Below, in pieces: positions 12,399 through 63,130 of a stretch of DNA of 64,000 nucleotides. Each line of letters begins with the position of its first letter. Position 1 is the first letter of the stretch. This DNA is from a virus. A model generated the notes under the pieces. The model was not told the DNA's origin and did not search any database. It saw nothing but the letters and a program-made list of their open reading frames with translations. Location of the stretch: the IMG/VR virus record IMGVR_UViG_3300044971_004534; one strand, given 5' to 3'. The translations under genes and the position numbers were made by a program.

Positions 12399-13430
12399 TT
12401 ATCGGCACGGATGGAGAAATTTAAGGAAGTCTTCAGATACTTTTTTCCATGTGTGACCGCTTGCGTGCCTGATTGCTCCTTGAGGGGAGCAGTGGATAAT
12501 GGCTAGCACTGTGGCGAGTTTCAGTGCTGGGAGTGAGCCATCAAAGGCGAGGTATCCGTTCTTCCCGTTCTGGACCCAGTCTTTTGGTCCTGTGACGGGG
12601 TATCCCACAACGGGGAGGCCGCATGCATTTGCTTCCAGCATGACGAGTCCAAAGGTGTCGTTTTTTGATGGGAACACGAAGATGTCGGCATTGCGCAGAG
12701 CTCTCCCCACACCTTCTGGTGGGAGTGGGCCACTGAAATGAACTTTGGGGTATTTCTTTTTAAGTGTATTAAGGTACGAGCCACCGCCTACAAAAGTGCA
12801 GTGGAACCCACTGTTGGAGAGTTCGCAGAAGTCGTCTAAGCCTTTCTCTGGGTGGGCTCTGGACACGCATATAAGGCGCTTGGAGTGAATCTTGAGGGCA
12901 TTACGCTTCCACGCAGGCGGGAAGAAGTAGGACTCGTCTACGCCCCTTCCCCAGACGGCAATGCGGTGGGCTGGTGCGAGTAGGTACGACTCGTTGACGA
13001 GCTCGCCCTTTGTGGAGCGTGTGGGTACGAGAATTTTCTTAGAAAGTTTGTGGAACCACTTGAGGTAGCACTGGGTCAAGGACTGGGGGATGCCGTACCA
13101 GTCGTTTAAGATATCGGGAAATTTAGTGTGGTATCCTGTTGTGAAATGGAGGCGGGAGCTCGAGCATGCTCTCCTAGCACTGAAGCCCAGAGGTCCTTCA
13201 GTGAAAATGTGTATATGATCAGGGTTAAAGTCTTTGATTTTTTTCTTTAGGAAGGGGAAGACGAGTTTGACGCCACCGGTGAATGGCAATTGTATTCCCC
13301 AGAAGAGACCTGGATGAAGAAGCAGCACTTCGTGACCCAGCTGGGTAAGTGCTGAAGCTGTATTTTTAACTGTGGTGTAGACGCCATTGATCTGGGGCTC
13401 CCAGGCGTCTGTGACAAGGATAATCCGCAT
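12399..13430 (-). CDS. GT4-family glycosyltransferase (Agt/SQD2-like)
   Basis: MRIILVTDAWEPQINGVYTTV N-terminus and EANACGLPVVGYPVTGPKDWVQNGKNGYL (EX7E region) are typical of GT4. Confidence 0.85.
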   Translation of the reverse strand: MRIILVTDAWEPQINGVYTTVKNTASALTQLGHEVLLLHPGLFWGIQLPFTGGVKLVFPFLKKKIKDFNPDHIHIFTEGPLGFSARRACSSSRLHFTTGYHTKFPDILNDWYGIPQSLTQCYLKWFHKLSKKILVPTRSTKGELVNESYLLAPAHRIAVWGRGVDESYFFPPAWKRNALKIHSKRLICVSRAHPEKGLDDFCELSNSGFHCTFVGGGSYLNTLKKKYPKVHFSGPLPPEGVGRALRNADIFVFPSKNDTFGLVMLEANACGLPVVGYPVTGPKDWVQNGKNGYLAFDGSLPALKLATVLAIIHCSPQGAIRHASGHTWKKVSEDFLKFLHPCR

Positions 13431-13449
13431 GGGTAAGACCCCTTTCTAA

Positions 13450-13477
13450 AATGAATTTCTATGTATAGAAATTCATT
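13450..13477. promoter_or_regulatory. 28-bp palindrome (operator-like), copy 1
   Basis: AATGAATTTCTAT-gt-ATAGAAATTCATT, perfect 13-nt arms, 19 nt upstream of the GT4 start on the minus strand. Confidence 0.6.
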
Positions 13478-13516
13478 CAAAAACGAGGTGTCTCCTTCTT
13501 ATTTCTGCCCCGATTT

Positions 13517-14269
13517 TTATAATTCTGTCCAGAAGACTAGTTTTATTTCGCCTTCTTCTGTTTCAACGAGGGCACTGAACGACTCAACCCAGTCGCCACA
13601 GTTGTAGTAGGAAATCCCGTTGAGGTCGCGCACTTCAGGCTTATGGATGTGTCCGCACACGACACCGTCGTATCCACGACGCTTTGTATATTCAGAGATG
13701 TGATGCTCAAAATGAAAAACGAAGTTTGTTGCCTGCTTAAAGTTCTGCTTAATGAACTTGGAGAACGACCAGTTCTTCTTGCCGAAAAGACGTAAAGCTT
13801 TTCCTACCAGTCGGTTAGATACAACAAGGAAGTCGTATGCCGTTGATCCCAGAGCACTGATCAGAGGGTTGAGGCGGACAGCAGAGTCAAAAACATCGCC
13901 ATGAAGAACAAGGATCTTCTTACCACCGAGGGTTGTGTGGGAAGCTTCGTTCTTGAACTTGATGTCTCCAAGGGTGATTTTTGTCGGTAGCCATAGACGG
14001 ATGAATTCATCGTGGTTTCCTGGAAGATAGGTAACGTGGGCACCCTGCTTTACCTTCTTCAGTATTTTACGGACAGTAGTGGAATTGGCATTAGGCCAGT
14101 GCCATCGTGATTTGAGGCGCCATCCGTCAATGATATCACCTACAAGATACAGGGAGTCGCAGGTGAATGAATCAAGAAAGTCGTTGACCTTATGAGGGTT
14201 GGCGCAGTCAGCTCCGAGGTGCAGGTCAGAGATCCAGACTGCTCTAAAGTGGTTTTTTGATTTTTTCAT
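13517..14269 (-). CDS. LpxH/YbbF/PlcP-like metallophosphoesterase
   Basis: ISDLHLG, VGDIIDGW, PGNHDEF, VLHGDVFD, CGHIHKPE in LpxH-family order; start moved to MKKSKNHFRAVW within ORF-track 13517..14395. Confidence 0.8.
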   Translation of the reverse strand: MKKSKNHFRAVWISDLHLGADCANPHKVNDFLDSFTCDSLYLVGDIIDGWRLKSRWHWPNANSTTVRKILKKVKQGAHVTYLPGNHDEFIRLWLPTKITLGDIKFKNEASHTTLGGKKILVLHGDVFDSAVRLNPLISALGSTAYDFLVVSNRLVGKALRLFGKKNWSFSKFIKQNFKQATNFVFHFEHHISEYTKRRGYDGVVCGHIHKPEVRDLNGISYYNCGDWVESFSALVETEEGEIKLVFWTEL

Positions 14270-14885
14270 TTGAAATAAGCTCTTGAGTGCGAAGGCCAGA
14301 TCGTCGAGCACTGTTCCATAGAAGATCAGCCCAGAGAGCGCCTGCCTGTATATCGGATGGGAAGTGGAGTCCGCCATCGACTCTGCTCTGGCCAACTAAA
14401 TCGGCCATCTTCATAAACGTACTTTCCTTGTGGGGGAAATTTTCAGCAAGGGCATGAGCCATGATTCGGGCGCATGCCATGTGTCCAGAGGGGTACGAGG
14501 GTGAATGGTCTGTATCTGATGTTGCTGGCTCAAAGTCCATCTGCAGGCGCTTTGCTACTTCTTTCGGCCTGGGACGATTGTGATAGATTTTTTCTTTTAG
14601 AACAAGGGTTTCTGTATCTGATGCGATGAGCTCGAGCAGCGGGCGAAATACTGGGCCTGAACCCTGAGGTAATAATCTTAAAAAGTCATCTACGAATGAA
14701 GTATCGAAGACTTGGACCAAGAGCACCCTTTCTGGGTCGTCTTGAGCATCTCGCATCTGCTGAACAACTTGAAGGAGTTCCGTAGCACTGTCTGGCGGAG
14801 ACGGAAGATGAGGTGGATTTTCCTTCAGTATGACTGTGGGTCTGTGGAGCGCGACGTGATGTTCTGGGGAGAGTGGGCGTGGCAT
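14244..14885 (-). CDS. PAP2-family (type 2 phosphatidic acid/acid) phosphatase
   Basis: Kx6RP (HNRPRPKE), PSGH (SYPSGHMA) and SRx5Hx3D (SRVDGGLHFPSDIQAG) motifs; start taken at MPRPLSPEH, alternative ATG 14921 lies inside the palindrome. Confidence 0.8.
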   Translation of the reverse strand: MPRPLSPEHHVALHRPTVILKENPPHLPSPPDSATELLQVVQQMRDAQDDPERVLLVQVFDTSFVDDFLRLLPQGSGPVFRPLLELIASDTETLVLKEKIYHNRPRPKEVAKRLQMDFEPATSDTDHSPSYPSGHMACARIMAHALAENFPHKESTFMKMADLVGQSRVDGGLHFPSDIQAGALWADLLWNSARRSGLRTQELISNEKIKKPL

Positions 14886-14890
14886 AGTAA

Positions 14891-14918
14891 AATGAATTTC
14901 TATACGTAGAAATTCATT
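14891..14918. promoter_or_regulatory. 28-bp palindrome (operator-like), copy 2
   Basis: AATGAATTTCTA-tacg-TAGAAATTCATT, 12-nt arms identical to copy 1, immediately upstream of the PAP2 gene. Confidence 0.6.
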
Positions 14919-14966
14919 CAAAAAGGGGCCATCTCCTCCCCAAAAAATTGTATTTGAGCGGTTTTT

Positions 14967-15368
14967 TCAACGACCCTGAGGTAAGGTCGTGTGACCGGTC
15001 AAGCGCTGGTACGCGTCAACGTAGGCAATGTTTTCGGTACCCACTGCGATGCGCAGCTTCTCGTACCACATGTCAGTTTCTGCTTTTGTCATCTTCCCTT
15101 CGTGGGAGTAGATAGACAGATCCCGAACAATCCCCTGACGAGCAAGCATGGCTTCTTCTGCGTTGTATCGAAGCTTGTCCGAGTTCATGGAGCACCGAAT
15201 GGACTCCACCAGATCGTCATGGTATTTAAACCACGTGACCATGATCCGCTCTTCACGTGATTGACGCGTCGCACCTGCGTTGGTGGCACTGTTTGGGGTG
15301 GTTTGGCATCCAGAAGAAAAAAGCGACAACGCAACAACTAAGCTCGTAAGGCCAATGCTTTTTTTCAT
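14967..15368 (-). CDS. putative lipoprotein
   Basis: ORF track; MKKSIGLTSLVVALSLFSSGC signal peptide with Cys lipobox-like end. Confidence 0.65.
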   Translation of the reverse strand: MKKSIGLTSLVVALSLFSSGCQTTPNSATNAGATRQSREERIMVTWFKYHDDLVESIRCSMNSDKLRYNAEEAMLARQGIVRDLSIYSHEGKMTKAETDMWYEKLRIAVGTENIAYVDAYQRLTGHTTLPQGR

Positions 15369-15650: not shown

Positions 15651-15748
15651 GAGTCTGGTCTCCTTTTTTAATTCAGGGGACCAAACATCGCACTGCGGAC
15701 CCCACTTCGCGCACCGCTTGAAGGCGAGCGATACCTCTTAGTAACCAC

Positions 15749-16468
15749 TCATTCTTCAGACTGACCAACCAAATCCAGCTTTTCGACATTCGGTAGCACT
15801 GCGTCTGGCAAAGGGTGGAAGGGGCCTTTTTTCATCCAAACCTTGGTATACGTCTTCAGGTTCTCCCTCCACGCACCGCGCACCGAGTCGCATCTCCATA
15901 GGGGCATGGACCAACGAAGGCGCACTGCGTTCGTCATAAAGCGGCCTGTCATACCATTCAAATTAAAAAATGGGGAAAACGAGGCGATCCAGAACTGGCT
16001 GTGCCACGCCCAGAGAGCAATCTCCTTTTGGAGGGGGAGTGGAGAGAAGCCCCTTTCCAGATAGTCCAAGGCTTTGGCGTCATGGGCGGCAAACTGGCAT
16101 GCCCATTCCTCTACTAACTTCTCCCCTGGTGTGTGCTCGAAGTAGGTTTTTTTATCTACGATGTGGATAACGGGGTGATCTGGTGGCAGCCCCTCATCTG
16201 TAAGGCCCAGCTCTTCAGCTGCGCCCTTTCGAAGCATCTCGTTTACTTTTTGAGTTGTCTCCCATATCGAGACGGCTCCCTCAGCAGTTACGAAGTTCCA
16301 GATCTCATTGCAGCAGTTTGTCATGGCAAGGGCAAGTTGCCGAGGCGCAGGTGATGTCCTGACTCTGAGGAGCTCGTTCTCGCTCACCAGATAGTTGTCG
16401 ATCTCCGCTGAATTTGCTAAGAAAGATGTCCAATCGGCCATCTCCGGGATATGTATGTGACGGGGCAT
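15749..16468 (-). CDS. hypothetical protein
   Basis: ORF track, ATG start; first gene of the minus-strand block. Confidence 0.55.
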   Translation of the reverse strand: MPRHIHIPEMADWTSFLANSAEIDNYLVSENELLRVRTSPAPRQLALAMTNCCNEIWNFVTAEGAVSIWETTQKVNEMLRKGAAEELGLTDEGLPPDHPVIHIVDKKTYFEHTPGEKLVEEWACQFAAHDAKALDYLERGFSPLPLQKEIALWAWHSQFWIASFSPFFNLNGMTGRFMTNAVRLRWSMPLWRCDSVRGAWRENLKTYTKVWMKKGPFHPLPDAVLPNVEKLDLVGQSEE

Positions 16469-22449: not shown

Positions 22450-23121
22450 ATGAAGAACAGCAACACGGGCATGGTTCTTGCCCCGAACCCGGCTGACATC
22501 ATCAGCCGTCAGTTGAAGTTGGACCGCAACACTTTCCTTCAGGCTGTCAACCTCTACAACTCGCTGACGCAGTTGGATCAGTCAGCGACGGTTGCCGCCC
22601 CGAACGAAGGTGGCGAGGAGGACACGGGCAAGCGTGGTCCCGGTCGCCCGAAGGGGTCGAAGAACCGGAAGCCCGGTCGCCCGAAGGCGAAGCGTGGTCC
22701 CGGTCGCCCGAAGAAGAAGCGTGGTCCGGGTCGCCCCAAGGCGAAGAAGGGTCCGGGTCGCCCCGCTGCCAAGCGTGGTCCCGGTCGCCCGAAGGGGTCG
22801 GTTGCCAAGCGCAAGACGGTGAAGGGTGGCGCAACCGCCTCTCGCCGTGGTCGCAAGGCGAAGAACCCGAACGGCATGACCATGCGCGATGCGGTCACTA
22901 ACGCTCTCCGCAACGCCAATGGTCCGGTGAAGGCTCCTGCCATCGCTGAAACCCTCAAGGGTCAGGGCTTTACGAGCAAGTCGCTCAACACTCAGGTGGC
23001 TCAGGAGTTGAGCCGCATGGTGACTGATGGACTTGCCAGCCGCCCTGAGCGTGGTTCGTATGCTTGGTCGGGCAGCAACGCCCCGGCAGAGCAGACGGCT
23101 GAAGTCGCTCAGACCGCCTGA
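22450..23121 (+). CDS. AT-hook repeat DNA-binding protein with C-terminal H1/winged-helix-like domain
   Basis: Seven GRP cores: KRGPGRPKG, KPGRPKA, KRGPGRPKK, KRGPGRPKA, KKGPGRPAA, KRGPGRPKG...; nucleotide repeat GGTCCCGGTCGCCCGAAG. Confidence 0.8.
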   Translation: MKNSNTGMVLAPNPADIISRQLKLDRNTFLQAVNLYNSLTQLDQSATVAAPNEGGEEDTGKRGPGRPKGSKNRKPGRPKAKRGPGRPKKKRGPGRPKAKKGPGRPAAKRGPGRPKGSVAKRKTVKGGATASRRGRKAKNPNGMTMRDAVTNALRNANGPVKAPAIAETLKGQGFTSKSLNTQVAQELSRMVTDGLASRPERGSYAWSGSNAPAEQTAEVAQTA

Positions 23122-23947: not shown

Positions 23948-24302
23948 GGGGCTGAACTGGTTTCGATTGCTGAAGGACTATTCGATACTGCACGACGAGG
24001 CTGATGGGCAACTCGTAAAAAGCCGATCAAACAACAACCGCCAACGAATCGTTGATGGCTGTCGCTGCTTGATGCAGCAAAGTTCTTAGAAGTTGGACAC
24101 TTGCTTCTAAGAACTGTCTGAAGTGTCGATCAGCGTACTGCGAAGTTCCAACGCATAAGGCGCTGAAGTTAATATTATATGATTTGGAACTTTCAAAGGA
24201 CTCATGGTACGAGGACTCCTTTGATCGACGGACTCGTACCTAGCGTGGAGAAGGTGCGATAGGACTTTTGCCAACACAGGGGTTCGACTCCCCTCGGCTC
24301 CA
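23948..24302 (+). ncRNA. ssrA: tmRNA (SsrA), tag ADQTTTANESLMAVAA
   Basis: 5' GGGGCTGAACTGGTTTCGA; 3' T-arm GGGGTTCGACTCCCC plus acceptor CGGCTCC-A pairing with the 5' end incl. G3:U; tag ORF GCC 24022 to TGA 24072 after an A-rich tract; no encoded CCA. Confidence 0.8.
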
Positions 24303-24311
24303 TTCAGCAAG

Positions 24312-46797: not shown

Positions 46798-47061
46798 ATG
46801 CCCAAGTGGATCGTCGGAACGCAGTACATGGAGAACTACGGCGACAGCGAGAAGCCGTACTGGAAGGCGAAGGGCGGCAGCGACTACGCCGTGGAAGCCG
46901 CAACCGCCGCCGATGCGGAGCGCGTGGTGCAGGAGAAGAAGTGCCACAAGACCGACTACTCCGAGGAGTACATCATCGGCACCACGATCCCCTACGAGCA
47001 GTTCGTGCAGGAGTGCCGCGACCACCCGTGGATGATCGAAGGGGTCGAAACAGTCGCCTAA
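46798..47061 (+). CDS. hypothetical protein
   Basis: ORF track; last gene of the GC-rich block. Confidence 0.6.
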   Translation: MPKWIVGTQYMENYGDSEKPYWKAKGGSDYAVEAATAADAERVVQEKKCHKTDYSEEYIIGTTIPYEQFVQECRDHPWMIEGVETVA

Positions 47062-47066
47062 TCAAC

Positions 47067-47133
47067 GGGAGCCACACGGCTCCCCATCCTTTCCGCCCTG
47101 TCCCCCTAAAGGAGGACGGGGCGTGTTTCTTTG
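47067..47133 (+). terminator. two tandem hairpins, second with U-tract
   Basis: GGGAGCC-acac-GGCTCCC (47067-47084), then CGCCCTGTCC...GGACGGGGCG (47094-47123) followed by TGTTTCTTT. Confidence 0.65.
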
Positions 47134-47144
47134 CATAGGCAGAA

Positions 47145-47258
47145 AGCCGGTATGGAAGAAAGCAGCGAACAGAGACAGCCGGTATCGAAAGAGTTTGCAG
47201 AATCGGACAGCCGGTATGGAAGCATCCAAACCAACGGTCTGAATCCATCCAAACCAAC
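47145..47258 (+). repeat. short direct repeats in a non-coding junction
   Basis: AGCCGGTATGGAAG 47145 and 47209, AGCCGGTATCGAAA 47177 (about 32-nt period); CATCCAAACCAAC at 47223 and 47246. Confidence 0.8.
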
Positions 47259-47341
47259 TGGGCAGCATGGCAGGTAGCCAAAGGGTCGTACACTATACCC
47301 CCCACCCGGGGGTGCTTATATAGGGGTGATTTGGCTGGAGG

Positions 47342-47377
47342 GGGATACCTTAGCCCCTCTTCTCTTTTTTGTAATAA
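47342..47377 (+). promoter_or_regulatory. GGGATACCTTAG motif plus TGTAATAA (-10-like), copy 1
   Basis: motif 47342-47353; TAATAA 47372-47377, 18 nt after CCTTAG. Confidence 0.35.
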
Positions 47378-47434
47378 ATCCTGGTTTAAAAAATAGGGGC
47401 ATAAAAATATAAGATTTATGATTTTGAAAAAAGG

Positions 47435-47469
47435 GGGATACCTTAGCGGGAGTGTATGAATGGTAATAT
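47435..47469 (+). promoter_or_regulatory. GGGATACCTTAG motif plus TGGTAATAT (extended -10), copy 2
   Basis: motif 47435-47446; TAATAT 47464-47469, 17 nt after CCTTAG; ATG 47494 downstream. Confidence 0.4.
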
Positions 47470-47493
47470 TTTATTTTTACGGGGGGTGTGTAA

Positions 47494-47856
47494 ATGCAGG
47501 AACAGACTGATGTTATACACAAGCAGCTTGTGGGTTACGGGATAGAGATAGGGCTTCTTATTTCAGGTTTCTTTGGGGCTTTGCTCCTTGTTTCGAAGAA
47601 CGCATCGCAGCGCATGGGGGCAACGGTTGCGTCGCTTCTTGCGGGAACTGCGTGTGCAAACTACCTGACGCCTGTGGTCCTGAACTTTCTTCCTGAATCC
47701 ATCAGGGCTCAAGGAAAGTACGCTGCTGCCTTCATGATGGGATTCATGGGGTTAAAGGGCTTGGAGCTGATGATAGACAAATTTGTTAAAAAGGAAGAGG
47801 AGGGCGGGAAGAAGAATCGTTCCCGTTCATCCACTAAGAGAAAGGGCAAGTCATGA
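47494..47856 (+). CDS. membrane protein, holin-like (3 predicted helices, basic tail)
   Basis: ORF track; helices GIEIGLLISGFFGALLLV, ATVASLLAGTACANYL, AAFMMGFMGLKGL; tail KKNRSRSSTKRKGKS; the function is a guess. Confidence 0.5.
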   Translation: MQEQTDVIHKQLVGYGIEIGLLISGFFGALLLVSKNASQRMGATVASLLAGTACANYLTPVVLNFLPESIRAQGKYAAAFMMGFMGLKGLELMIDKFVKKEEEGGKKNRSRSSTKRKGKS

Positions 47857-48179
47857 ACGTGATTTCTGTGATAAACGCTGTTGTCAACGGGGTAATGGCG
47901 CTTGGTTTTAGTGCATTTCTGGTGTTCCTGTTTGGAAGAGAGAATTCCCTTATTCATAAATTGGGTAATATGAATGTTATTTTCGTGAAGATCATCCTGA
48001 GCATGTGTGCTTCTGGGGCTCTTTACAATGCGTGCATACTCCACGAGCCAGCGCCTTCGGAGCTGTTGCTTAATGCGGGTGTTGCCGCGCTGTTTTGCTG
48101 GGCTTCCGTATTCCATTACATGCGATTCGTGAAGCCAATTAAGAAAAAAGCGGCAAAGAAAAAAAGACGCACAAAGTGA
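47853..48179 (+). CDS. membrane protein (3 predicted helices, basic tail)
   Basis: ORF track; ATGA overlap; tail KKKAAKKKRRTK. Confidence 0.5.
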   Translation: MNVISVINAVVNGVMALGFSAFLVFLFGRENSLIHKLGNMNVIFVKIILSMCASGALYNACILHEPAPSELLLNAGVAALFCWASVFHYMRFVKPIKKKAAKKKRRTK

Positions 48180-48228
48180 TTACTTAAACAAGGAATGCTA
48201 GCGCAGACAGTTCACTTTTTTGTAAAAA

Positions 48229-48262
48229 GGGATACCTTAGTGAATTGGGGCAATAGTAAGAT
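48229..48262 (+). promoter_or_regulatory. GGGATACCTTAG motif plus TAAGAT, copy 3
   Basis: motif 48229-48240; TAAGAT 48257-48262, 16 nt after CCTTAG; ATG 48281 downstream. Confidence 0.35.
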
Positions 48263-48280
48263 TTGGAGGAAGTATTACGC

Positions 48281-49102
48281 ATGCATACGATTATCAATAC
48301 GCTAAGGGGTCGCTTCGTGCACGGGAAGGACGAGAGCGAGTACTACGAATCAATCATAAAAAACGTCCATACGGGAATGGATCACACGTTCTGCTTTTCC
48401 GTATGCAACACTGAATTGCCAGAGATTCCTCCGGGAACAATTGTATTTTCTACATCTGACGAACACCACAGGCAGCCCATACCGAACCACTTGCAGGAAA
48501 ACGTTGGGATACTTTTGAAGACTTTTTTCCCCAAGGAAGGGGTGACTGACCATCGTGTGCTGCCGTTTCCTCTGGGTTATTTCACGGATTTTGGGGGCCA
48601 TGCGCTTACTCCTATTGCGGAGAGAGGTCTTGACTACTCGTTCTACGGTGCTCACAACGACAATGGTCGTGACAAGCTGCACGGATGGCTAAGGAAGCGA
48701 AAGGGGGACGGATGCAAGAAGGAGTGGGGTTTTTACGAAGGTTGGGGCAAGGGAAAGGGGATGTGGGACTACGGTTCGCTGCTGACGAAGACAAAGATCG
48801 CTCTTTGTCCTCCTGGATACGTGAGTCCTGAATGCGCAAGGCTTCCAGAAGCTGCTCGCTGCGGTTGCGTCCTTCTAGTCCCGAATGACTTGCCCACGCA
48901 TCTATGGTATTTCCAGGGGTTTCCTGGGATAAAGATTGAAGACTGGTCGAACCTGAAGATTGTTGACGAACTGCTTGCAGATCCTAAAAGGATGCAGGAC
49001 ATCAGCGACGAAACAGTGAAATGGTACAACAGGTGCATTGATCCAAAAGCCGTGGGTGCATGGCTTACGGAAAGGATCAAGGAAAGAATCCAAAAGGCAT
49101 AA
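48281..49102 (+). CDS. exostosin (GT47)-like glycosyltransferase
   Basis: ALCPPGYVSPECARLPEAARCGCVLLV resembles the exostosin C-terminal motif; ATG 48281 10 nt after GGAGGA (ORF track lists TTG 48263). Confidence 0.5.
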   Translation: MHTIINTLRGRFVHGKDESEYYESIIKNVHTGMDHTFCFSVCNTELPEIPPGTIVFSTSDEHHRQPIPNHLQENVGILLKTFFPKEGVTDHRVLPFPLGYFTDFGGHALTPIAERGLDYSFYGAHNDNGRDKLHGWLRKRKGDGCKKEWGFYEGWGKGKGMWDYGSLLTKTKIALCPPGYVSPECARLPEAARCGCVLLVPNDLPTHLWYFQGFPGIKIEDWSNLKIVDELLADPKRMQDISDETVKWYNRCIDPKAVGAWLTERIKERIQKA

Positions 49103-49105
49103 ACT

Positions 49106-49591
49106 ATGCAGTACAAATTATCTAAAAGCGAATGGCTCAAAATAGGCGAACAAGCTGGATGGCTGAGGATCAGCGGGGAACAGGCAGTCCTGACGAAGCA
49201 GGGGAAATCAAATGTTGCTGGTGCGGTCTTTCAGGTGATGCGTAAACCCGAGATAGCAAAGAGGATCATTGAACTTTCTAAAATCTGGAATTCCAATTCA
49301 AGCGAGTTTAGCAAGAAGCTTCAAGATCTGGAGCAAGAGATCGTTGTTGACTATCATAATTTTTTGGACACAGGAGCATCAGAAGATTTGTTCATTGACC
49401 GAATCGAGTTACGGAGTATCATTGAAAAAATCATCTATAAAATGCTTGAAGTTGGCGACTTGGGAGTTCGGGAAGCAGGCGAACAAGCTGGATGGCTGAA
49501 GGAAGCCAAGTGCTGGAAGGGCTACAAAGCCGTTGGCATGAAGAAGAAAAAGGGCAAGACCGTTCCCAATTGCGTCCGCAAGGAGAGCTGA
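49106..49591 (+). CDS. QYKLSK-domain protein (module 1, gene A)
   Basis: MQYKLSKSEWLKIGEQAGWLRI N-terminus; C-terminus GEQAGWLKEAKCWKGYKAVGMKKKKGKTVPNCV; internal 22-nt exact repeat 49145/49478. Confidence 0.65.
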   Translation: MQYKLSKSEWLKIGEQAGWLRISGEQAVLTKQGKSNVAGAVFQVMRKPEIAKRIIELSKIWNSNSSEFSKKLQDLEQEIVVDYHNFLDTGASEDLFIDRIELRSIIEKIIYKMLEVGDLGVREAGEQAGWLKEAKCWKGYKAVGMKKKKGKTVPNCVRKES

Positions 49592-50437
49592 ATGGGTTGG
49601 CTCAAGGCGGCGCAGACAAGTGCATGGGGCCAGAACACGAGCAGGGGTGCAAGGGAAATCTACACCGCATTGCGTGAACGTGCCAATCCCCACAGGAGCA
49701 GCGCTGAGCTGAATAAAAAATGGGGGGAGGAAATAGTGAAGATACCGGGTTACGTGTCCCGTTGGTCCGGTGGCAGCTGGGCATACGTGGACTACGACCC
49801 CCAGAAGCGAAAGAACACCGACAGGATGAATCCACTTGCCCACAAGGGAATGGAGTGGAAGCTGTACTTTACCGTCAATCCAAAGGACGGGGGCGCGGAG
49901 AGCATGGGAAACACCCTTGAGGCGTTGAAAGACCTTCCGAGACAGCTGGAGGCAAACCTTGGTCCTCATGGCGTCGCCCTTCTCTACAAGATCCCTGGAA
50001 CCTGGAGTGGATTTTTGCGGGAGAACGACACAGTCGTGATGTATCACCCGTTCGAGCCTCGCAGCAGGTGGACGGACTTCATCTCTTCCGTTGTTCGTGG
50101 CTGGATGGGCAAATGGGGACTGGAGGAAGGGAAGCGTTCGTACAACGAGGGCTTTGACTGGCACGAGCAGACGGAGTACAGGGACGGAACGCAGGTGGAG
50201 CACAAGGAGATGACGGACAGGCTGGGATGGCTGAAGCCAGAGGGATTCATTGCCATGGGGCTGGAAAGGGGTGGTGGATCATTTGGCACTACATTGGCCC
50301 GCTTCATGGAACTTGTTGGCAAGAACCCTGATGACCCGCGCTGGAAGGGCTTGGTGAAGGGGGGAGAGATCAGTATGAAGGAAGCAGCAGACTGGCTTAT
50401 TGGGCACGGCAAAGAGGTAGCACAGGAACTGATGTGA
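49592..50437 (+). CDS. GW-K N-terminus protein (module 1, gene B)
   Basis: MGWLKAAQ start; AAGGAG SD; noticeably more GC-rich than its neighbours. Confidence 0.65.
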   Translation: MGWLKAAQTSAWGQNTSRGAREIYTALRERANPHRSSAELNKKWGEEIVKIPGYVSRWSGGSWAYVDYDPQKRKNTDRMNPLAHKGMEWKLYFTVNPKDGGAESMGNTLEALKDLPRQLEANLGPHGVALLYKIPGTWSGFLRENDTVVMYHPFEPRSRWTDFISSVVRGWMGKWGLEEGKRSYNEGFDWHEQTEYRDGTQVEHKEMTDRLGWLKPEGFIAMGLERGGGSFGTTLARFMELVGKNPDDPRWKGLVKGGEISMKEAADWLIGHGKEVAQELM

Positions 50438-50460
50438 CGAACACCTGTTTTGTTTTTTGT

Positions 50461-50492
50461 ATCCCCCGAAAAATTATGGAGGGGGATTTTTA
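50461..50492 (+). terminator. rho-independent terminator
   Basis: ATCCCCC ... GGGGGAT stem followed by TTTTTATT. Confidence 0.6.
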
Positions 50493-50662
50493 TTATATTG
50501 TTCTGGTTGAAAAAACATCGACCTGTTGAGATGCCCCTAAAAAAATTTTTGGCGCGTTAATACTGGGTTACTGATGGAGGGGGCGGAAATTTTTATAATC
50601 ATCATAAGACCAAAAGGGAAAGACTATTAATCAAAGCAATATAATAAATAGGGAGACTCAAT

Positions 50663-51181
50663 ATGCAATACAAACTATCTAAAGAACAGTGGTTGGAGAT
50701 CGGGCAAAAGGCTGGTTGGTTCAAAATTGCACAGCAAGAAGAGAAAGGACGTGCATTCTTCGTCACTGCTTCAGAAGAAGAAATAAAAAAATATATAGAC
50801 AGCATAGAAGAGTCGTCTGCGCAGGATCTTGCCGACAACCTTGCGGGCGAAAGAGACATGATGAGGGAGAGTGCAAATGGGGCTCGTAGGGCTGCGATGT
50901 CAGCTGATGCAGGCGGAGACGCTGATGACTACAGATTCCAGCTCAAGTTAGAAAAGCAAAAAATTGAAGTTGCAGACAAGTTTGCAAAAGCACTGGCAAT
51001 GCTTACGGTAAGATTTCCGAATGTAAAAACTCCAGAACCAGCCAAGCTCATGGACATGGCAGATTCAATGGAGACACTTTCTCAAAAAGAACATGAGCAA
51101 TCCCGAAGCCAAAGCACCTTACAGGGAGATGCAGAAAAAAGACTGAGACTACCTGGCCTGGGAGCAAACACCCCAAGATAA
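50663..51181 (+). CDS. QYKLSK-domain protein (module 2, gene A)
   Basis: MQYKLSKEQWLEIGQKAGWFKIAQQ; GGGAG SD. Confidence 0.65.
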   Translation: MQYKLSKEQWLEIGQKAGWFKIAQQEEKGRAFFVTASEEEIKKYIDSIEESSAQDLADNLAGERDMMRESANGARRAAMSADAGGDADDYRFQLKLEKQKIEVADKFAKALAMLTVRFPNVKTPEPAKLMDMADSMETLSQKEHEQSRSQSTLQGDAEKRLRLPGLGANTPR

Positions 51182-51199
51182 AAATTATAAGGAAAACAC

Positions 51200-51514
51200 A
51201 TGAACTGGTACAAAAGCGCAAGAAAAAGATACGGATCATTCCATTATGACTTTGACGGAATAGAGCTTATTAATCCCATTTGCTTTTGCTCTGGAACTGC
51301 AAATGTGGAATTTTCAATAGAAAGAGATCCAGGTGACAGATATGAGCCTCCGACCACAGATGTTGATCTCAATGTGACAGTTGAGTCACTTTACTGCACA
51401 GACGCAGAGGGTGAAGAAATTCCAGTCACGAATGAAATGGTTAGGGAGGTTGAGGCCATACTCAGAGATGAAGAACATTTGCGAGAAAAAGCCTTTGACC
51501 ACGAATTTGATTAA
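51200..51514 (+). CDS. NWYK N-terminus protein (module 2, gene B)
   Basis: MNWYKSARKRYG start; ORF track. Confidence 0.6.
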   Translation: MNWYKSARKRYGSFHYDFDGIELINPICFCSGTANVEFSIERDPGDRYEPPTTDVDLNVTVESLYCTDAEGEEIPVTNEMVREVEAILRDEEHLREKAFDHEFD

Positions 51515-51601
51515 TTTGAAATAATTTTTAAAAATTACAGAACATTTTAAATTCATAATCGTACAAATGATGACATCATTTATCACAGGAGATTATGTCC
51601 A

Positions 51602-53059
51602 ATGAAAATACTACTCGCAATTTTAGTAAGTGCTCTTATCGTAAACGGTTCTGAATTTAAGAAAAATACAACAAACAAGAACGTCGTAACCGCCACGGAA
51701 ACCCAGGTGAATACGGCGTTTGTCGGTTTTAATGACGGCGTTTCTCTGGAGGACAAACAGAGGACTATTGCATCTCTTGGGAACATGATTGAGTCTGCAC
51801 ATTATTATGAAAATATCCCCAATTTGGCACTTGTCGTTGTTTCGAGTAACTTTATAACTAACATAGCAGACGTGTCAAGTGCACTTGAAGGAAATGAGAC
51901 TGTTTCATTCTTTGAAATGGACAGAAGATTTACCGCAACATACAGCGAAGTGATTCCAAACGATGCCGGATTCTCACAATGCTGGGGTCACAGAAATACC
52001 GGAGCTTCTGGTGGACTGGTAAACTTTGATATGAATACAACAAATGCATGGTCTATTACTCAAGGACAGCCAACGGTAAAAATACTTGTCTTTGAGACAG
52101 GAATACAGCAAGATCATCCAGATATAAATCAACTGCCAGGAAGAGACTTCACAACAGGTGCAGTGAACGGAGTAAGCGGCGGTGGACCAAGCAACTCTTG
52201 TGACAATCACGGGACTGCCGTTGCAGGATGCATTACAGGCATTATCAACAATTCAATAGGAACCGTGGGAACTGCACCAAATTGCAAAGTCATTTCCGCA
52301 AAAGTTGGCACAGCAATCACTCCATGCAATGGGTCGTGGCAGGGGCAAACATCATGGACTGTAAATGCTATTAACTGGGCAATCGGCAATGGAGTAAGGG
52401 TAACAAACAACAGCAATGATTACGGCACAGCTTCTACGGCAATGTCAAATGCATATTCTGCCGCAAAAAATGCTGGAATAGTTAATTTTGCAAGTTCTGG
52501 AAATTCTGGAAACACTTCTATTGGTTTCCCAGCAAGTGCTTCTGCGGTGAACGCAGTTGGTGCAAGCAGCAGAAACGGACAGAAAGCTTCTTTTTCGTCA
52601 TACGGCACAAAGCTCGCTTTTGTTGCTGCTGGCCAATCGGTTTACACCACAGACAGGACGGGATCAAATGGATACTCTTCAGGTGACTATTCACTTATTG
52701 ACGGAACTTCTTTTTCTTCCCCATATGCCGCTGGTGTCGCAGCACTTATCATTTCAGTGAACCCATCACTTTCTGCAGCACAGGTTGAGTCCATTATGCA
52801 AACAACATGCAAGGACATGGGAGCAGTAGGATTTGACACTCTTACTGGATGGGGAATGCTGAATGCAGAAGCTGCCGTGCTTCTTGCTCGCCCTGTTCCA
52901 TGCCCAGCAGATTTAAATGGAGACAGGTCTGTCAATGGAAGCGATCTTGGTCAATTGTTGTCTTCATGGGGTTCATCTGGATCTGACCTTACTGGAGATT
53001 CAGTCGTCAATGGCGAAGATTTAGGCGTTCTTCTTTCTGCATGGGGGCCTTGTCCGTAA
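51602..53059 (+). CDS. secreted subtilisin-like (S8) serine protease with C-terminal dockerin-like repeats
   Basis: Signal peptide MKILLAILVSALIVNG; catalytic D (VFETGIQQDHPD), H (NHGTAVAG), S (GTSFSSPYAAG); tail DLNGDRSVNGSDLGQLLSSWG / DLTGDSVVNGEDLGVLLSAWG. Confidence 0.9.
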   Translation: MKILLAILVSALIVNGSEFKKNTTNKNVVTATETQVNTAFVGFNDGVSLEDKQRTIASLGNMIESAHYYENIPNLALVVVSSNFITNIADVSSALEGNETVSFFEMDRRFTATYSEVIPNDAGFSQCWGHRNTGASGGLVNFDMNTTNAWSITQGQPTVKILVFETGIQQDHPDINQLPGRDFTTGAVNGVSGGGPSNSCDNHGTAVAGCITGIINNSIGTVGTAPNCKVISAKVGTAITPCNGSWQGQTSWTVNAINWAIGNGVRVTNNSNDYGTASTAMSNAYSAAKNAGIVNFASSGNSGNTSIGFPASASAVNAVGASSRNGQKASFSSYGTKLAFVAAGQSVYTTDRTGSNGYSSGDYSLIDGTSFSSPYAAGVAALIISVNPSLSAAQVESIMQTTCKDMGAVGFDTLTGWGMLNAEAAVLLARPVPCPADLNGDRSVNGSDLGQLLSSWGSSGSDLTGDSVVNGEDLGVLLSAWGPCP

Positions 53060-53068
53060 GGTTGCTGT

Positions 53069-53587
53069 ATGAAAGAACATCCGTATACTCCATTTGATGA
53101 TTTTTTTGCAGAGTTTAGATGGTATCAGAAAAGAGGGATAGCTCCTGATATATCAAAAAGTCAGCTTAAAAAAATATGGAATGAATCTCCTGTAGTATTG
53201 CTTGAACCAAAGAATTTTGATTCATTCAGAAACTTCTCTCCATATCGTGAAAAGCTGAATGGCACAATGGAGAACAGAATAAGAAAACTGCTTGAGATAT
53301 CTGCAACGGAAGATAGAGATGAAGTGTTTGACACCAAGTGGGAATTGAAAAGAAAAAAGAATCCACAAAAATACATTATCAATTTAGCTCAACTTGTGTG
53401 GAACAAAGATGGATACGATCCAGTAAATGTAGTGGACATAAATGGTAAAAGACAATTTATCACAGGTGGCAGAACTCGTGCAGCAATCGGAAAAGCACTG
53501 GGAGTTCCCGTGCTGACTCGCATTGTTTGCCTGGAACATAAGGGAAAATGGTCTAAGCGAGCTCGTGAGCTTATGAATGGAAAATGA
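53069..53587 (+). CDS. hypothetical protein, possible ParB/Srx-like nuclease fold
   Basis: VVDINGKRQFITGGRTRAAIGKALGVPVL resembles the ParB N-terminal GxRRxxAA..LG box; weak. Confidence 0.45.
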   Translation: MKEHPYTPFDDFFAEFRWYQKRGIAPDISKSQLKKIWNESPVVLLEPKNFDSFRNFSPYREKLNGTMENRIRKLLEISATEDRDEVFDTKWELKRKKNPQKYIINLAQLVWNKDGYDPVNVVDINGKRQFITGGRTRAAIGKALGVPVLTRIVCLEHKGKWSKRARELMNGK

Positions 53588-53640
53588 CGCGTTGCAGGTA
53601 ATCATCTGTTAGCGTTGAATATATTTCAATGGAGAATTAT

Positions 53641-54096
53641 ATGCAATATAAATTATCAAAGTCAGAGTGGGAATCTATAGGCGTCAATGCTGGGTGGATG
53701 AAAATTGCTGGACCTGGCGGAAGATTTCAGGCTTCCATGAGTGCAGCAGAGCAAAAGTTGTGGGCAAGCCTAAATCAGCAACAAAAAAATAATTATGCAA
53801 CATTGGATGCTGCCAATAGAGCAAGGGTTGCAGCACTGCCATTGCAGCAAGCACAACAATACCTGAACAGCATAATGCCACCAGCTGGAGGTAAAGTCCC
53901 AACAGCTTCATTTGATAATGAAATAAAGACGGCTCTTAAATTAAATGACAAAACTGATGAAAAAACACCAGAGCAGTATAAGGAAGAGTTTATAGAAAGA
54001 ATGAAGTCCATCGGGATGACAGATGAAGAAATCGAGCGTGCACTAAAATCTGGATATTTAGAAAGAATCATGAAAGGCAGAAAGAATAAAGAATGA
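53641..54096 (+). CDS. QYKLSK-domain protein (module 3, gene A)
   Basis: MQYKLSKSEWESIGVNAGWMKIAG; ATG 53641 6 nt after GGAG (ORF track lists 53629). Confidence 0.65.
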   Translation: MQYKLSKSEWESIGVNAGWMKIAGPGGRFQASMSAAEQKLWASLNQQQKNNYATLDAANRARVAALPLQQAQQYLNSIMPPAGGKVPTASFDNEIKTALKLNDKTDEKTPEQYKEEFIERMKSIGMTDEEIERALKSGYLERIMKGRKNKE

Positions 54097-54860
54097 ACTG
54101 GTATAAGCTGGCTCAAAATAGGTCTTTTTCTTGGGCCAATGTAGAGGGTATTTTATACACACCAGAGGCCATGAGAGACTTGAAAGATTTTAAGAAGTCT
54201 CAGGAAGGAAGAAGTGCTAAGGAAATTAGCATGCTTATTAAAGACGTTATTGATAGAAGACAAATTAATTTACGGAATGTAGAATCCAGGTCTGCTGCAA
54301 ATCCTTACATTCCAAACGGACCAAAAGAAAAAATAAAGATTCACGTATTTGAGCCAAGAGGTGTTGGACTCGCTGAAGGTCCCGGAAAGGCTTACAGAAT
54401 AGGAGCACAACTATGTTCTTTAGGAGGAGAAACTTCAGAATCATCAGACAAATACATTCGAGAGCAAGAATTTGAAAGAACTGGACGTAAATTTTTAATT
54501 ATCAAGAGAGTATTTGAAAATCATGATGAAGATTATTTGCCATGGATTAGTCTATATAATTCTTCTCACGTAGATGATTGTCCAAAATACACATTTCAAA
54601 TTCAAAGAAAAGAAAACCAAGAAAAAATAGTAGATCTCAATCCTCAAAACCCTTTTGACTGGTTAGTAAATTCTGTAAAGATGATACGCGATAGAAATAT
54701 TGAAGGCATCAGCATTCATAAAAGAATGCTTGAAGGAAAATCAGAAGAAGAAATTTTTAGTATTTTAGAATTTATGACAAAAAATCAGGCTAGATTCCCA
54801 TCTAATATATTAAAAGATATAGGCAGGTGGATCGAGGAATACGTGGACAGAACAGGGTAA
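54093..54860 (+). CDS. NWYK N-terminus protein (module 3, gene B)
   Basis: MNWYKLAQNRSF start; ATGA overlap. Confidence 0.6.
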   Translation: MNWYKLAQNRSFSWANVEGILYTPEAMRDLKDFKKSQEGRSAKEISMLIKDVIDRRQINLRNVESRSAANPYIPNGPKEKIKIHVFEPRGVGLAEGPGKAYRIGAQLCSLGGETSESSDKYIREQEFERTGRKFLIIKRVFENHDEDYLPWISLYNSSHVDDCPKYTFQIQRKENQEKIVDLNPQNPFDWLVNSVKMIRDRNIEGISIHKRMLEGKSEEEIFSILEFMTKNQARFPSNILKDIGRWIEEYVDRTG

Positions 54861-54880
54861 TACATCTTTGGAAAACACAC

Positions 54881-55336
54881 ATGAACTATTCTGAATTTTA
54901 TGGAACTGGAGATGACGCAAAAAGGCTTAAGCTTATTCTTATGTCTTACGATGAAGAGTATGCACGTCAAATGAAAACATATCCAGAGCAAAAAAATGCT
55001 TTAACAACTCAGTTTAAGTCATATTCAAATCTAGTTATTAATCAACTTAATAGCTACACAGAATCAGGAGAAAGCGCTCCAAGTGGAGTCAGAATGCTTG
55101 GAATTGTTTTCAAAAAGAATTTAAATGTTGCCGCTAAGTACGAGCTTATTAATCCTGTAGAATTTTCTACATATACTGACGCAGCAAAATCTTTCTATGT
55201 CAGTCAAAACTTAGACGTAAGTGAATACTTTGATAATTCAGAAAATTCAACAGAACTGTTTAATAGAATTAATACTAGTCAGGATAATCCTACAGGTATA
55301 ACATACTTAGATTCATCAGGTTCATTAGTGAGGTAA
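54881..55336 (+). CDS. hypothetical protein
   Basis: ATG 54881 in frame of ORF-track 54827..55336. Confidence 0.55.
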   Translation: MNYSEFYGTGDDAKRLKLILMSYDEEYARQMKTYPEQKNALTTQFKSYSNLVINQLNSYTESGESAPSGVRMLGIVFKKNLNVAAKYELINPVEFSTYTDAAKSFYVSQNLDVSEYFDNSENSTELFNRINTSQDNPTGITYLDSSGSLVR

Positions 55337-55341
55337 TAAAG

Positions 55342-55620
55342 ATGTCTTTTAGAGAAAAAATCGGATTTGAAAAACAAGGCGACCAATGGGTTCGCACCCA
55401 GGCAGCGCTAAACGCTGCTGCTCCTAAAGCTATAAGTAGAATTGAAAAACTTATATATTCTGCTGATACTGCTGCAGGTATTGGAGACATGAACGGAGCT
55501 GCGTTTCATGCGAATTGGGCCAGAATTGTCATACAGAGTGCACTAGACAATGGTTTTATTACTCAAAATCAGCACTCAACATACATGTCTCAAATTAACG
55601 CTATTTCTCCGCCAGAATAA
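55342..55620 (+). CDS. hypothetical protein
   Basis: ORF track; SD GTGAGG. Confidence 0.55.
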   Translation: MSFREKIGFEKQGDQWVRTQAALNAAAPKAISRIEKLIYSADTAAGIGDMNGAAFHANWARIVIQSALDNGFITQNQHSTYMSQINAISPPE

Positions 55621-55639
55621 TAGAGATATTAGATACAAC

Positions 55640-55663
55640 AAAGGGGAGCTTTTGGCTCCCCTT
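55640..55663. terminator. bidirectional rho-independent terminator
   Basis: AAAGGGGAGC-tttt-GCTCCCCTTT between convergent genes. Confidence 0.8.
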
Positions 55664-55689
55664 TGTTGTATTATAAAATGTAAAAATAA

Positions 55690-56328
55690 TTATTTACGCT
55701 TACGTTGACTAAAGCTGCAAAGACCTGCAATACCAATAAGAGATACTGCTCCTGGTGCAGGAATTGCGTTTACTCCAAAGCCACAGTAGTCAATAAAGTT
55801 TCCCTGAGTAGATCCGCCTGTGGCGCTAACTGCCTGAAATGCGAATCTTGTCAGATTTCCTATACTAACTATAGATCCTGAATGAAATTGCCAAGCAGTT
55901 TCATCTGCAGTAAAGTTGCCCTGATACAGAACAGTGTCATCTCCGTTGCCATACAGCTGATCTGCGCCAAGATCAATTATTGAAAGCTGCATGACATCAA
56001 CTCCGTATCTGCCTCTGTGAGCAAAATGCCAATTAATTGTATTGAAATCTCCTAAGCCATTGACGTGCTGATACAAAGTAGAATCGTAGTTTGCATTGAG
56101 TTCAGCGAATGAACTTCCCTCATATGCAGGCACTCCAAGAAATCCATCTGACCAAATCTCCAAATTGTTGTCTGGTGCTGTGGTTGCCCAGTTCAAAGTT
56201 GGGTCAGAACCAGAAAAGAAACCATAACCCCAGGTCTGAAAATCTTCAAAACCACCGTTTACAAGATCTGCCATACAACTTGTAGAAATAACTAAAGTAG
56301 ACAAAAATGCACAAGCGTATTTAACCAT
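55690..56328 (-). CDS. secreted PEP-CTERM protein with DUF642-like domain
   Basis: Signal peptide, then DLVNGGFE; C-terminus IPAPGAVSLIGIAGLCSFSQRKRK (PEP-CTERM variant: PxPG, helix, basic cluster); SD AAGGAGGG. Confidence 0.75.
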   Translation of the reverse strand: MVKYACAFLSTLVISTSCMADLVNGGFEDFQTWGYGFFSGSDPTLNWATTAPDNNLEIWSDGFLGVPAYEGSSFAELNANYDSTLYQHVNGLGDFNTINWHFAHRGRYGVDVMQLSIIDLGADQLYGNGDDTVLYQGNFTADETAWQFHSGSIVSIGNLTRFAFQAVSATGGSTQGNFIDYCGFGVNAIPAPGAVSLIGIAGLCSFSQRKRK

Positions 56329-56369
56329 TTAATAAACCCTCCTTATTAAAATTGGTAATGGTGTAAAAA

Positions 56370-57164
56370 TTATATTCTTTTACGATTATGAAAAAATTGA
56401 CTAAAAGCAACTACAGTAAAAGCTCCAGGTGATGGAACGGACGGTGGCACATAGTATCCACCAGTGTCTATACCATAGTACTCTCCAAATCCATAGTTAG
56501 TTCCAAGAGCAAGTGTAGTGCTATAGACATCAAATGGCAGCAAACTAGGAGTAAAAAAGGCTGCGTATGGATCTGCAAATCCTGTTTGAGCTGCCAAAGA
56601 GGTAACCGGGGCTAAATTAATATCTGTCGCCAAAGCTGCCTGCACAATTTGCTTTGTCAATTTATTTTGCTCATTAGTAACAACAAGTGGAGCTTCAACT
56701 GGCTTATCTCCACCAATTTTATTTTCTTTGGGAAATCTAGCAAGTTCATCTGAGATCTGATAGCCACGAGTCTGTTCTTTGTTGTCAATTTTGAATGGTT
56801 TCTGCCAGTGCCCTTGATAAGGTTGGCCAAACAAAGCGGAATTTGACTGCTTATTACTATTATTGTCTTTTTGTTCTTGATTTTTTGGAGCGTCTGCTTT
56901 CCCAATATCAGAAGCTGCAGTTATGGCAGAATTCATGCCATTAATCGCTGACATAAGAGACTGTACTCCACGTTCACCAAGCAATGTGATTGCAGAAGTA
57001 CATACGATGGTCATAACGTAAACTTTTTTCTCTAAGCTTTTAACCTTAGATTTTGCTTCTTCACACATTCTGGCACATGAAGAGCATCCCCCAGAAATGC
57101 TCTCAACATGCGAGTGTGAAACTGGCGTAGGCGCAGGCTGCTGAATGTCTTTTTTAATCCCCAT
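56370..57164 (-). CDS. PEP-CTERM-like membrane/secreted protein
   Basis: C-terminus VPSPGAFTVVAFSQFFHNRKRI; internal helix VYVMTIVCTSAITLL. Confidence 0.55.
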   Translation of the reverse strand: MGIKKDIQQPAPTPVSHSHVESISGGCSSCARMCEEAKSKVKSLEKKVYVMTIVCTSAITLLGERGVQSLMSAINGMNSAITAASDIGKADAPKNQEQKDNNSNKQSNSALFGQPYQGHWQKPFKIDNKEQTRGYQISDELARFPKENKIGGDKPVEAPLVVTNEQNKLTKQIVQAALATDINLAPVTSLAAQTGFADPYAAFFTPSLLPFDVYSTTLALGTNYGFGEYYGIDTGGYYVPPSVPSPGAFTVVAFSQFFHNRKRI

Positions 57165-63086: not shown

Positions 63087-63130
63087 TTTCTACGACAAAT
63101 AAGTAAAAGCTCTATCATAGGAGAACTTAC

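Follow-up and report, generated by a model that had tools for sequence, protein, structure and literature searches.

Promoter-early stem-loop (PeSL) cassettes are known from T4-type phages, in which a stop codon in AT-rich DNA is followed by a variably placed stem-loop and by a Shine-Dalgarno sequence with a start codon, and Arbiol et al. (2010, PMC2839356) showed that the stem-loop attenuates transcription coming from upstream. Here we describe an element with the same order of parts in 64,000 nucleotides of DNA from an uncultured phage (IMG/VR record IMGVR_UViG_3300044971_004534; this whole stretch is referred to as the window). The element is built around a palindrome and occurs twice within a lipid gene cassette, once before a gene for a PAP2-family phosphatase and once before a gene for a GT4 glycosyltransferase; a metallophosphoesterase gene lies between them. 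Like PeSLs, it is a compact intergenic module and a repeated unit flanking small accessory gene sets. However, PeSLs carry a consensus sigma-70 promoter and stems with G/C tracts and are found in dozens of copies per genome, while here no sigma-70 consensus was found, the stem is AU-rich and invariant in sequence, and one or two copies are present in a single cassette. PeSL copies are concentrated in hyperplastic regions; here there are two copies in the 64-kb window and exactly two in the 84-kb record of a relative, which is rated 21% complete. Comparison with related sequences indicates that this is a real, selected cis-element private to the cassette, and probably one of hairpin type rather than a classic repressor site.

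The reading that we rank first, with a probability of roughly 40%, takes the element for a hairpin module of the sense-strand leader, acting at the level of the transcript and with a PeSL-like layout. Other leader RNA signals, for antitermination or attenuation, offer partial parallels. In lambdoid nut sites, boxA and a spacer precede the boxB hairpin, and the N protein reads the boxB loop. Like nut sites, the element described here has a hairpin preceded on its 5′ side by a linear motif at constant spacing, a promoter-proximal leader position, and sense orientation. It differs in that its loop is free while its stem is conserved, its AGGA motif is unlike boxA, and no N-like or Nus-dependent element was identified. 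Processing and stability hairpins, such as T7 RNase III sites, repetitive extragenic palindromes (REPs), and 5′ stabilizers, resemble it in their intercistronic position, the irrelevance of the loop, and the differential expression of neighboring genes. While T7 RNase III sites are duplexes of about 20 bp, usually with an internal loop, and REPs are present in many copies, the stem found here is a perfect one of 12-14 bp and its copies are few.

A first-pass annotation of the window had reported a palindrome 19 nt before the GT4 gene and another one next to the PAP2 gene, and the sequence agrees on both. Copy 1 (13450-13477, minus strand) has 13-bp arms around a 2-nt centre and lies 19 nt 5′ of the GT4 ATG on the coding strand. 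Copy 2 (14891-14918, minus strand) has 12-bp arms around a 4-nt centre and is separated from the PAP2 ATG by 5 nt. These are the sole two copies in the window, as that annotation had also stated: searches with the half-site, with a core pattern, and with a covariance model all returned these two alone. The 12-mer half-site has four exact matches in the window, all of them arms of copies 1 and 2; at two mismatches there are 13 matches, including the four arms, versus 6.96 expected, which is chance level. The core pattern AATTTCT-N(1-12)-AGAAATT was found twice versus 0.00 expected (none in 100 shuffles). An unfiltered search of the window with the covariance model gave 75 bits for each of the two copies and 12 bits for the next-best match.

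Both copies show the same order of parts on the coding strand, namely an AGGA box, 15 nt ending in a T-run and a G, the palindrome, and TT with a purine. The 5′ flank of copy 2 spans 14919-14937 with the AGGA box at 14934-14937, and that of copy 1 spans 13478-13496 with the AGGA box at 13493-13496. A shared upstream sequence, GGAGA...TTTTTG, had been noticed previously; it is real and can be narrowed to an AGGA that never varies and is always separated from the palindrome by 15 nt. The AGGA-N-ATTTCT geometry occurs in the window solely at these two sites. On the other side, the 3′ flank of copy 2 (14886-14890) reads TTACT and leads directly into the PAP2 ATG, so that the palindrome, TT, and purine are followed by CT-ATG without a Shine-Dalgarno sequence. 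The L002 and L095 lineages share this flank, and L124/L125 have TTGCC instead. The 3′ flank of copy 1 (13431-13449) consists of TT and the Shine-Dalgarno-like AGAAAGGGG, and the GT4 ATG follows directly; here the purine leads into the Shine-Dalgarno-like motif GAAAGGGG. In total, the two copies share about 60 nt, comprising the equally distant AGGA box (15 nt), the T-run and G, the palindrome, and the following TTA, and they flank the PAP2 and phosphoesterase genes, repeated as a unit.

The alignment comprises 14 distinct instances from at least six lineages of related uncultured phages, all at the same positions in the cassette, and the stem was tested as a 14-pair helix. All 189 of 189 cells hold standard pairs, compared to 30-54% when the partner was slid by 1-3 columns. 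Ten stem pairs are invariant. The arms are identical in 11 of the 14 instances and show symmetric change in the other three, with two pairs changed on both arms (L126, L128, and L130), from U:A to A:U and from G:C to U:A. At the base of the stem a G:U pair is possible in 13 of the 14 instances and an A:U pair in one. The palindrome hairpin was the sole consensus structure found by RNAalifold, and the calculated energy of the RNA hairpin is steady across lineages at about -10 to -12 kcal/mol (-11.9 kcal/mol with z = -6.5 for copy 2).

The loop, in contrast to the stem, is free to vary. Nine centres were found in the longest-stem register (CGT, CTT, ACA, TGT, GTT, AC, CGTA, CATA, and CATG). ACA and its reverse complement TGT occupy the same site in sister lineages, and CTT and ACA were detected in contigs with otherwise identical flanks. 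The palindromes of close lineages measure 28 or 29 bp, with both lengths in contig L095, and the invariant arm cores are separated by 6 or 7 nt (both distances in L095) or, in L126, by 3 nt. Pairing that is kept through two-sided changes, together with variable spacing and a free loop, points to hairpin formation, with pairing within one strand. Other features of the element are strand-specific. AGGA is invariant and lies exactly 15 nt 5′ of the stem in all 14 instances; every copy is then followed by T's and a purine, after which either the ATG begins within 3 nt or a Shine-Dalgarno sequence is reached in 1-4 nt. The distance from the palindrome to the downstream start is 5-19 nt, and the distance to the upstream stop codon ranges from 39 to 122 nt. 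The flanks are conserved on one strand only.

Conservation is concentrated in the element. Segments over the palindromes are 93-97% identical to L002, compared to 40-43% in the intergenic DNA just 5′ of copy 2. Among near-identical metagenome variants the arms never vary, while flanks and loops do. At 41% identity of a neighboring protein the stem has kept 10 of 12 pairs, while structure-only hairpins of the same intergenic region have turned over completely. In L126 and L128 the gene upstream of the cassette (p133) has a strong, canonical terminator behind it (-28 and -23 kcal/mol, then U6-7), 42-63 nt before the palindrome, and AGGA and the palindrome are the sole conserved sequences between this terminator and the start codon. 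These terminators indicate that the cassette is a separate unit with the hairpin in its leader.

We also observed palindrome formation next to the element in L092 (850-882), a close variant of the window lineage. An insertion of about 20 nt creates a second palindrome beside copy 2; the new palindrome is G/C-centred and consists of a T-run, GGGG A CCCC, and an A-run. This insertion is a sign of palindrome-generating template switching in the spacer.

All of the relatives in which the element was found have the palindrome before PAP2 or its remnant. Three IMG/VR contigs (L001-L006) encode a PAP2 80% identical to that of the window, and further lineages come from metagenome assemblies (L094-L096, L124/L125, and L218-L221). 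The element is retained in the deep lineage L126/L127, in which PAP2 is 50% and the upstream protein p133 is 41% identical. In the second deep lineage, L128-L130, PAP2 is cut to a 16-codon remnant. The module of AGGA and palindrome is kept there before the phosphoesterase and GT4 genes despite the loss of PAP2, as seen at L128:446-553 and in L130. While copy 2 is present in all lineages having the element, the GT4 copy was found in the close clade only (the window, L002, L095, L124, and L219 lineages); it is absent from L126, L128, and L131, where the phosphoesterase and GT4 genes abut or nearly do. As far as these sequences tell, the PAP2 copy is ancestral and the signal was then duplicated to bring GT4 under the same control as PAP2.

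Exact and gapped pattern searches across IMG/VR and 241 million metagenome records located the element in the lipid cassette of the related phages alone, at one or two copies per genome stretch sampled; three unrelated contigs also matched, through a different palindrome. A variant palindrome gave chance-level matches alone in IMG/VR. No palindrome was found upstream of distant GT4 homologues at 77 loci, and neither the core palindrome nor a covariance-model match at 80 loci with distant phosphoesterase homologues. The unrelated contigs (L090:2020-2230, L091, and L093) are AT-rich and contain arrays in which a 16-bp palindrome, TTTCTAATATTAGAAA, is repeated about ten times. This palindrome shares the TTTCTA/TAGAAA core, and the arrays look like an iteron or operator array of another element.

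The sole match of the covariance model among 160 other phage loci, at 32.7 bits, was L098, a 1.7-kb contig with a PAP2 homologue of 46% identity. The candidate consists of an AGGA box, about 13 nt, and a 17-19-bp AU stem whose outer and inner parts are like the L128 version and whose middle differs on both arms. If homologous, this sequence would add further compensated changes and would suggest that pairing is favored over sequence, which we treat as a lead only. Its position, 166 nt 3′ of PAP2 between convergent genes and with no open reading frame (ORF) behind it, fits a remnant left after loss of downstream genes or a 3′ role, again as a lead.

In the leader hairpin reading, the module of about 60 nt would act on one strand, with an AGGA box, a 15-nt stretch that closes with the T-run and G, an AU-rich stem of 12-14 bp, a free loop of 2-4 nt, and two or three more T's with a purine leading to the Shine-Dalgarno sequence or start codon. 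The hairpin would form in the transcript leader of PAP2-phosphoesterase and again before GT4, where it would abut the ribosome-binding region and most likely serve as a gate recognized by a factor. Such a gate could attenuate or process RNA arriving from upstream and set the stability and translation of the message behind it. The lipid genes would thereby be dosed apart from the rest of their gene island and from the main promoter regulon of the phage. We infer that the element is transcribed, acts as RNA, and is read by a sequence-specific factor. The strand-specific features, which are AGGA, the possible G:U closing pair, and the T's with a purine, support this reading.

Several observations weigh against a purely RNA-level role. 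There is almost no G:U or transition-type variation within the stem proper, although a constraint on RNA alone should tolerate such changes. The compensations are transversions that leave the palindrome perfect on both strands, and they fit a constraint at the DNA level or arm-to-arm template switching at least as well. RNA-binding proteins seldom read the sequence of an A-form stem with a free loop. The AU-rich stem is followed by 4-5 U only, and the consensus terminator scan does not call it. A search of the window against Rfam 15 gave nothing at gathering score beyond tRNAs and the transfer-messenger RNA (tmRNA), the remaining microRNA match being at chance level (E = 0.22). The candidate in L098 lies behind PAP2, which would suit a leader role only if the genes downstream of it were lost.

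The first-pass annotation had instead proposed an operator for a dimeric regulator. Such a site remains the next possible reading, although we regard it as clearly less probable: a symmetric regulator, probably phage-encoded, would bind both arms in double-stranded DNA and repress or activate an overlapping promoter. In that promoter, AGGA would play the part of a -35-like box and, at a distance of 19 nt, the AATTTCT core of the 5′ arm that of a -10-like box; the strictly fixed spacing from AGGA to the 5′ arm would be like that of a -35/-10 pair. Classical phage and host operators are palindromes with fixed half-site spacing and are usually imperfect. The element resembles them as a set of inverted repeats near gene starts which are few, specific to a gene set, and altered symmetrically. 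This reading would account well for an arm sequence that is invariant in close lineages and not merely paired, for symmetric transversions as expected when the half-site preference of a homodimer shifts, and for a palindrome that is perfect on both strands with essentially no G:U. Few sites at a single cassette are also expected for a dedicated regulator. The stretch from the upstream terminator to the start codon in L126 and L128 must contain a promoter, and AGGA and the palindrome alone are conserved there.

However, the two palindromes of L095 already differ by 1 bp in the spacing of their arms, the difference reaches 3-4 bp in L126, and complementarity is perfect at all 12-13 positions in 14 of 14 instances, which goes beyond the usual constraint of protein contacts. 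Two spacings in one genome, the 3-4 bp contraction, and the perfect complementarity together are hard to reconcile with a rigid dimer operator. A flexible, spacing-tolerant symmetric protein site overlapping a promoter would still fit. Thus, what stands of the earlier proposal is a real, selected cis-element, private to the cassette and tied to the PAP2 and GT4 starts; the rigid dimer spacing does not stand. Its view that the cassette has a signal distinct from the main promoter class is borne out, with sites at this cassette alone.

No cognate protein for an operator was found within the window. Domain scans detected no nucleic-acid-binding domain among the island proteins and no DNA-binding domain or helix-turn-helix in the island or the neighboring genes scanned within the window. 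No regulator was found among the three island genes upstream of PAP2: p93 has a Fic-antitoxin-like SxxxEG motif that is not conserved, and p133 is a predicted lipoprotein. The suggestion that the host might use the same site found no support: an exact scan for the 20-base core in the genomes of 185,579 species, which a degenerate host consensus would escape, gave 25 scattered single matches. No genome had a set of such sites, and many of the 25 matches lie inside longer inverted repeats followed by a T-run, which is terminator-like.

Scans for a sigma-70-type -10/-35 pair found none in or around the palindrome. Known consensus sequences were also compared by eye. Sites of the sigma-70, sigma-54, Bacteroidetes, and Bacillus sigma-H types failed on spacing or key bases, as did the SPO1 gp28 type (AGGAGA-N17-18-TTTNTTT), the ARG, Fur, and CodY boxes, and IHF.

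It is unlikely, but worth considering, that the palindrome itself is a promoter, read by a phage-specific polymerase either as duplex or as an extruded DNA hairpin in the manner of the N4 virion RNA polymerase. With the start site on the purine behind the T-run, the PAP2 message would be nearly leaderless (ACU-AUG) and the GT4 message would begin with AGAAAGG. The T's and purine that lead to an ATG or a Shine-Dalgarno sequence after every copy are consistent with such a start, and they parallel the main promoter class of this phage, whose motif ends at the ATG directly or at AGAAAGGA. A promoter is also needed downstream of the terminators in L126 and L128, and translation of read-through RNA would be awkward for PAP2, which lacks a Shine-Dalgarno sequence and has a stable hairpin 5 nt before its start. 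Extrusion is easy for AT-rich palindromes of 13 bp, and the calculated energy of the DNA hairpin is -8 to -9.6 kcal/mol.

N4 early promoters, which are read by the virion RNA polymerase, have a 5-7-bp stem and a 3-nt loop with an essential, conserved central purine. The likeness to them lies in a hairpin just 5′ of the inferred start, very few copies, and a phage apparently without sigma-70 signals. The stem here, however, is with 12-14 bp twice the N4 length, and the free loop of 2-4 nt is hypervariable although the loop matters in N4 promoters. Furthermore, with the shift of 3-4 bp in L126 any element on the 5′ arm would change its distance to the start site, and there are two sites only in the genome stretches sampled. 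No polymerase is known for such a promoter; none of N4 type was found, although no search was aimed at one. The more specific version, in which an extruded hairpin is used by a phage polymerase that is perhaps carried in the virion and starts at the purine after the T-run, is decidedly unlikely. If true, it would amount to a second, N4-like transcription system for the lipid genes which is independent of the main private promoters and produces near-leaderless messages.

We consider it quite unlikely that the element has no dedicated regulatory role and is a weak terminator or 3′-end stabilizer of the upstream gene, or a selfish or neutral palindrome. A neutral palindrome could be kept perfect by arm-to-arm template switching and have been copied once to the second site. 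In this respect, the flip of the loop between ACA and TGT and the different loops in identical flanks could reflect palindrome dynamics at the DNA level, as could the further palindrome that has arisen beside copy 2 in L092. The hairpin is followed by 4-5 U's as a weak terminator might be, and the L098 candidate does lie between convergent genes. However, the position of the element tracks the downstream start and not the upstream stop, and a strong canonical terminator already precedes it in L126 and L128. Neighboring structure-only hairpins turned over while the stem kept 10 of its 12 pairs, and one or two copies per genome, with none outside the cassette in the 241 million metagenome records, show that the palindrome is not spreading. 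A mobile or REP-like spreading repeat is ruled out by this copy number. A plain rho-independent terminator is also unlikely, since the stem has a single G:C pair, the U-tract is 4-5 long instead of about 6-8, the terminator scan does not call it, and it tracks the start codon. The true terminators of the clade, seen in L126 and L128, look different from the palindrome.

Translation of the palindrome, as a short upstream ORF or as an N-terminal extension of PAP2 with a ribosome melting the hairpin in pyrBI-type coupling, is highly improbable: most instances do have AGGAG followed after 10-14 nt by TTG or ATG, a 10-codon frame in L126 ends on the PAP2 Shine-Dalgarno sequence, an 11-codon frame at copy 1 of L002 ends just past the hairpin, and an in-frame start chosen by gene callers extends PAP2 in four close lineages, but the instances use three different frames, the peptide sequence is not kept, a start codon is missing from this place in L128, L130, and L098, the frame at copy 1 of the window runs for 77 codons out of frame over GT4, and PAP2 of L126 has its own Shine-Dalgarno sequence and start. 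The TTG-started frame for the peptide MNEFL(R/Y)IEIHF, which the earlier annotation had noted at both copies, does exist, but it is not conserved, as the frame through the 5′ arm shifts in the 29-bp relatives. A conserved leader peptide is ruled out by the differing frames and start codons, and a frameshift or bypass signal by the location of the module outside any reading frame.

Taken as a whole, this is a solid regulatory element of a known kind, and three readings of its mechanism fit, namely a leader hairpin, a DNA site, or a promoter. In bacteria, a pair of a PlcP-like phosphoesterase and a GT4 glycosyltransferase swaps phospholipids for glycolipids under phosphorus stress. Little is known in general about the way phages time genes of host metabolism. 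In the present case, a single clade of huge freshwater phages has provided its lipid cassette with a conserved signal of its own, apart from the roughly 35 private promoters driving the neighboring genes. The short module of about 60 nt comes with natural variants, including free loops, compensated stems, and one-copy and two-copy genomes, and gives a practical way into the gene control of huge phages that are not in culture. Its interest would widen should it turn out to be a DNA-hairpin promoter or to be bound by a new RNA-binding factor.

The gene behind copy 2 encodes the PAP2-family phosphatase (14244-14885, minus strand; Pfam PF01569, E = 1.2e-11). Public gene calls place its start in or before the palindrome (14886-14921, minus strand; P0001-P0003), giving 225 or 224 amino acids. 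The 11-12 extra residues of this longer version do not stay in frame from one lineage to the next, and judged on that basis it is probably a mis-called start. The end of PAP2 is overlapped by the gene of the calcineurin-type metallophosphoesterase of the PlcP/LpxH-like type (13517-14272, minus strand; Pfam PF00149 and PF12850), whose cellular homologues of 44-50% identity are annotated as LpxH-type. The GT4 glycosyltransferase (12399-13430, minus strand; Pfam PF00534, PF13439, and PF13692) follows behind copy 1. The PlcP/LpxH-like phosphoesterase gene is very common in phages and was detected in at least 575 viral contigs of IMG/VR (loci L132-L211), several of which are also among the GT4-bearing contigs, and this suggests a widespread lipid-remodelling pair of phosphoesterase and GT4 in phages.

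Upstream of PAP2 the island contains three genes without a known family (p239, p93, and p133), with no match to a Pfam or PHROG family. p93 is acidic and helical. p133 (14967-15368, minus strand) is a predicted lipoprotein with a signal peptide and a lipobox-like SSGC, and 48 nt separate its stop codon from copy 2. At the DNA level, the region is unlike any phage record. A non-coding stretch 5′ of the 93-aa gene (15684-15745, minus strand) matches the L002 and L095 lineages at 90-97% identity, far above the conservation of the flanking intergenic DNA; it has no Rfam match. Within the 239-aa ORF, the first gene of the island, the main promoter-class motif CCTCGTTTTCCCC... is followed by an in-frame ATG (15950-15985, minus strand), which may represent an internal start or a shorter isoform.

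Other features of the window were also recorded. A 223-aa protein (22450-23121, plus strand) contains a tandem series of six AT-hook-like repeats (KRGPGRPK), and its C-terminal domain has no Pfam match. Judging by these repeats, it may be a phage chromatin-like protein or one that binds AT-rich DNA, and as a factor acting at the palindrome it is no more than a candidate. A tmRNA gene with the tag ANESLMAVAA is located at 23948-24305 (plus strand), and seven tRNA genes (Glu, Gly, Arg, Met, two Leu, and Lys) lie between 11527 and 30855. Toward the end of the window (47000-64000), the G+C content falls sharply from about 55% to 32-37% over the last 15 kb.

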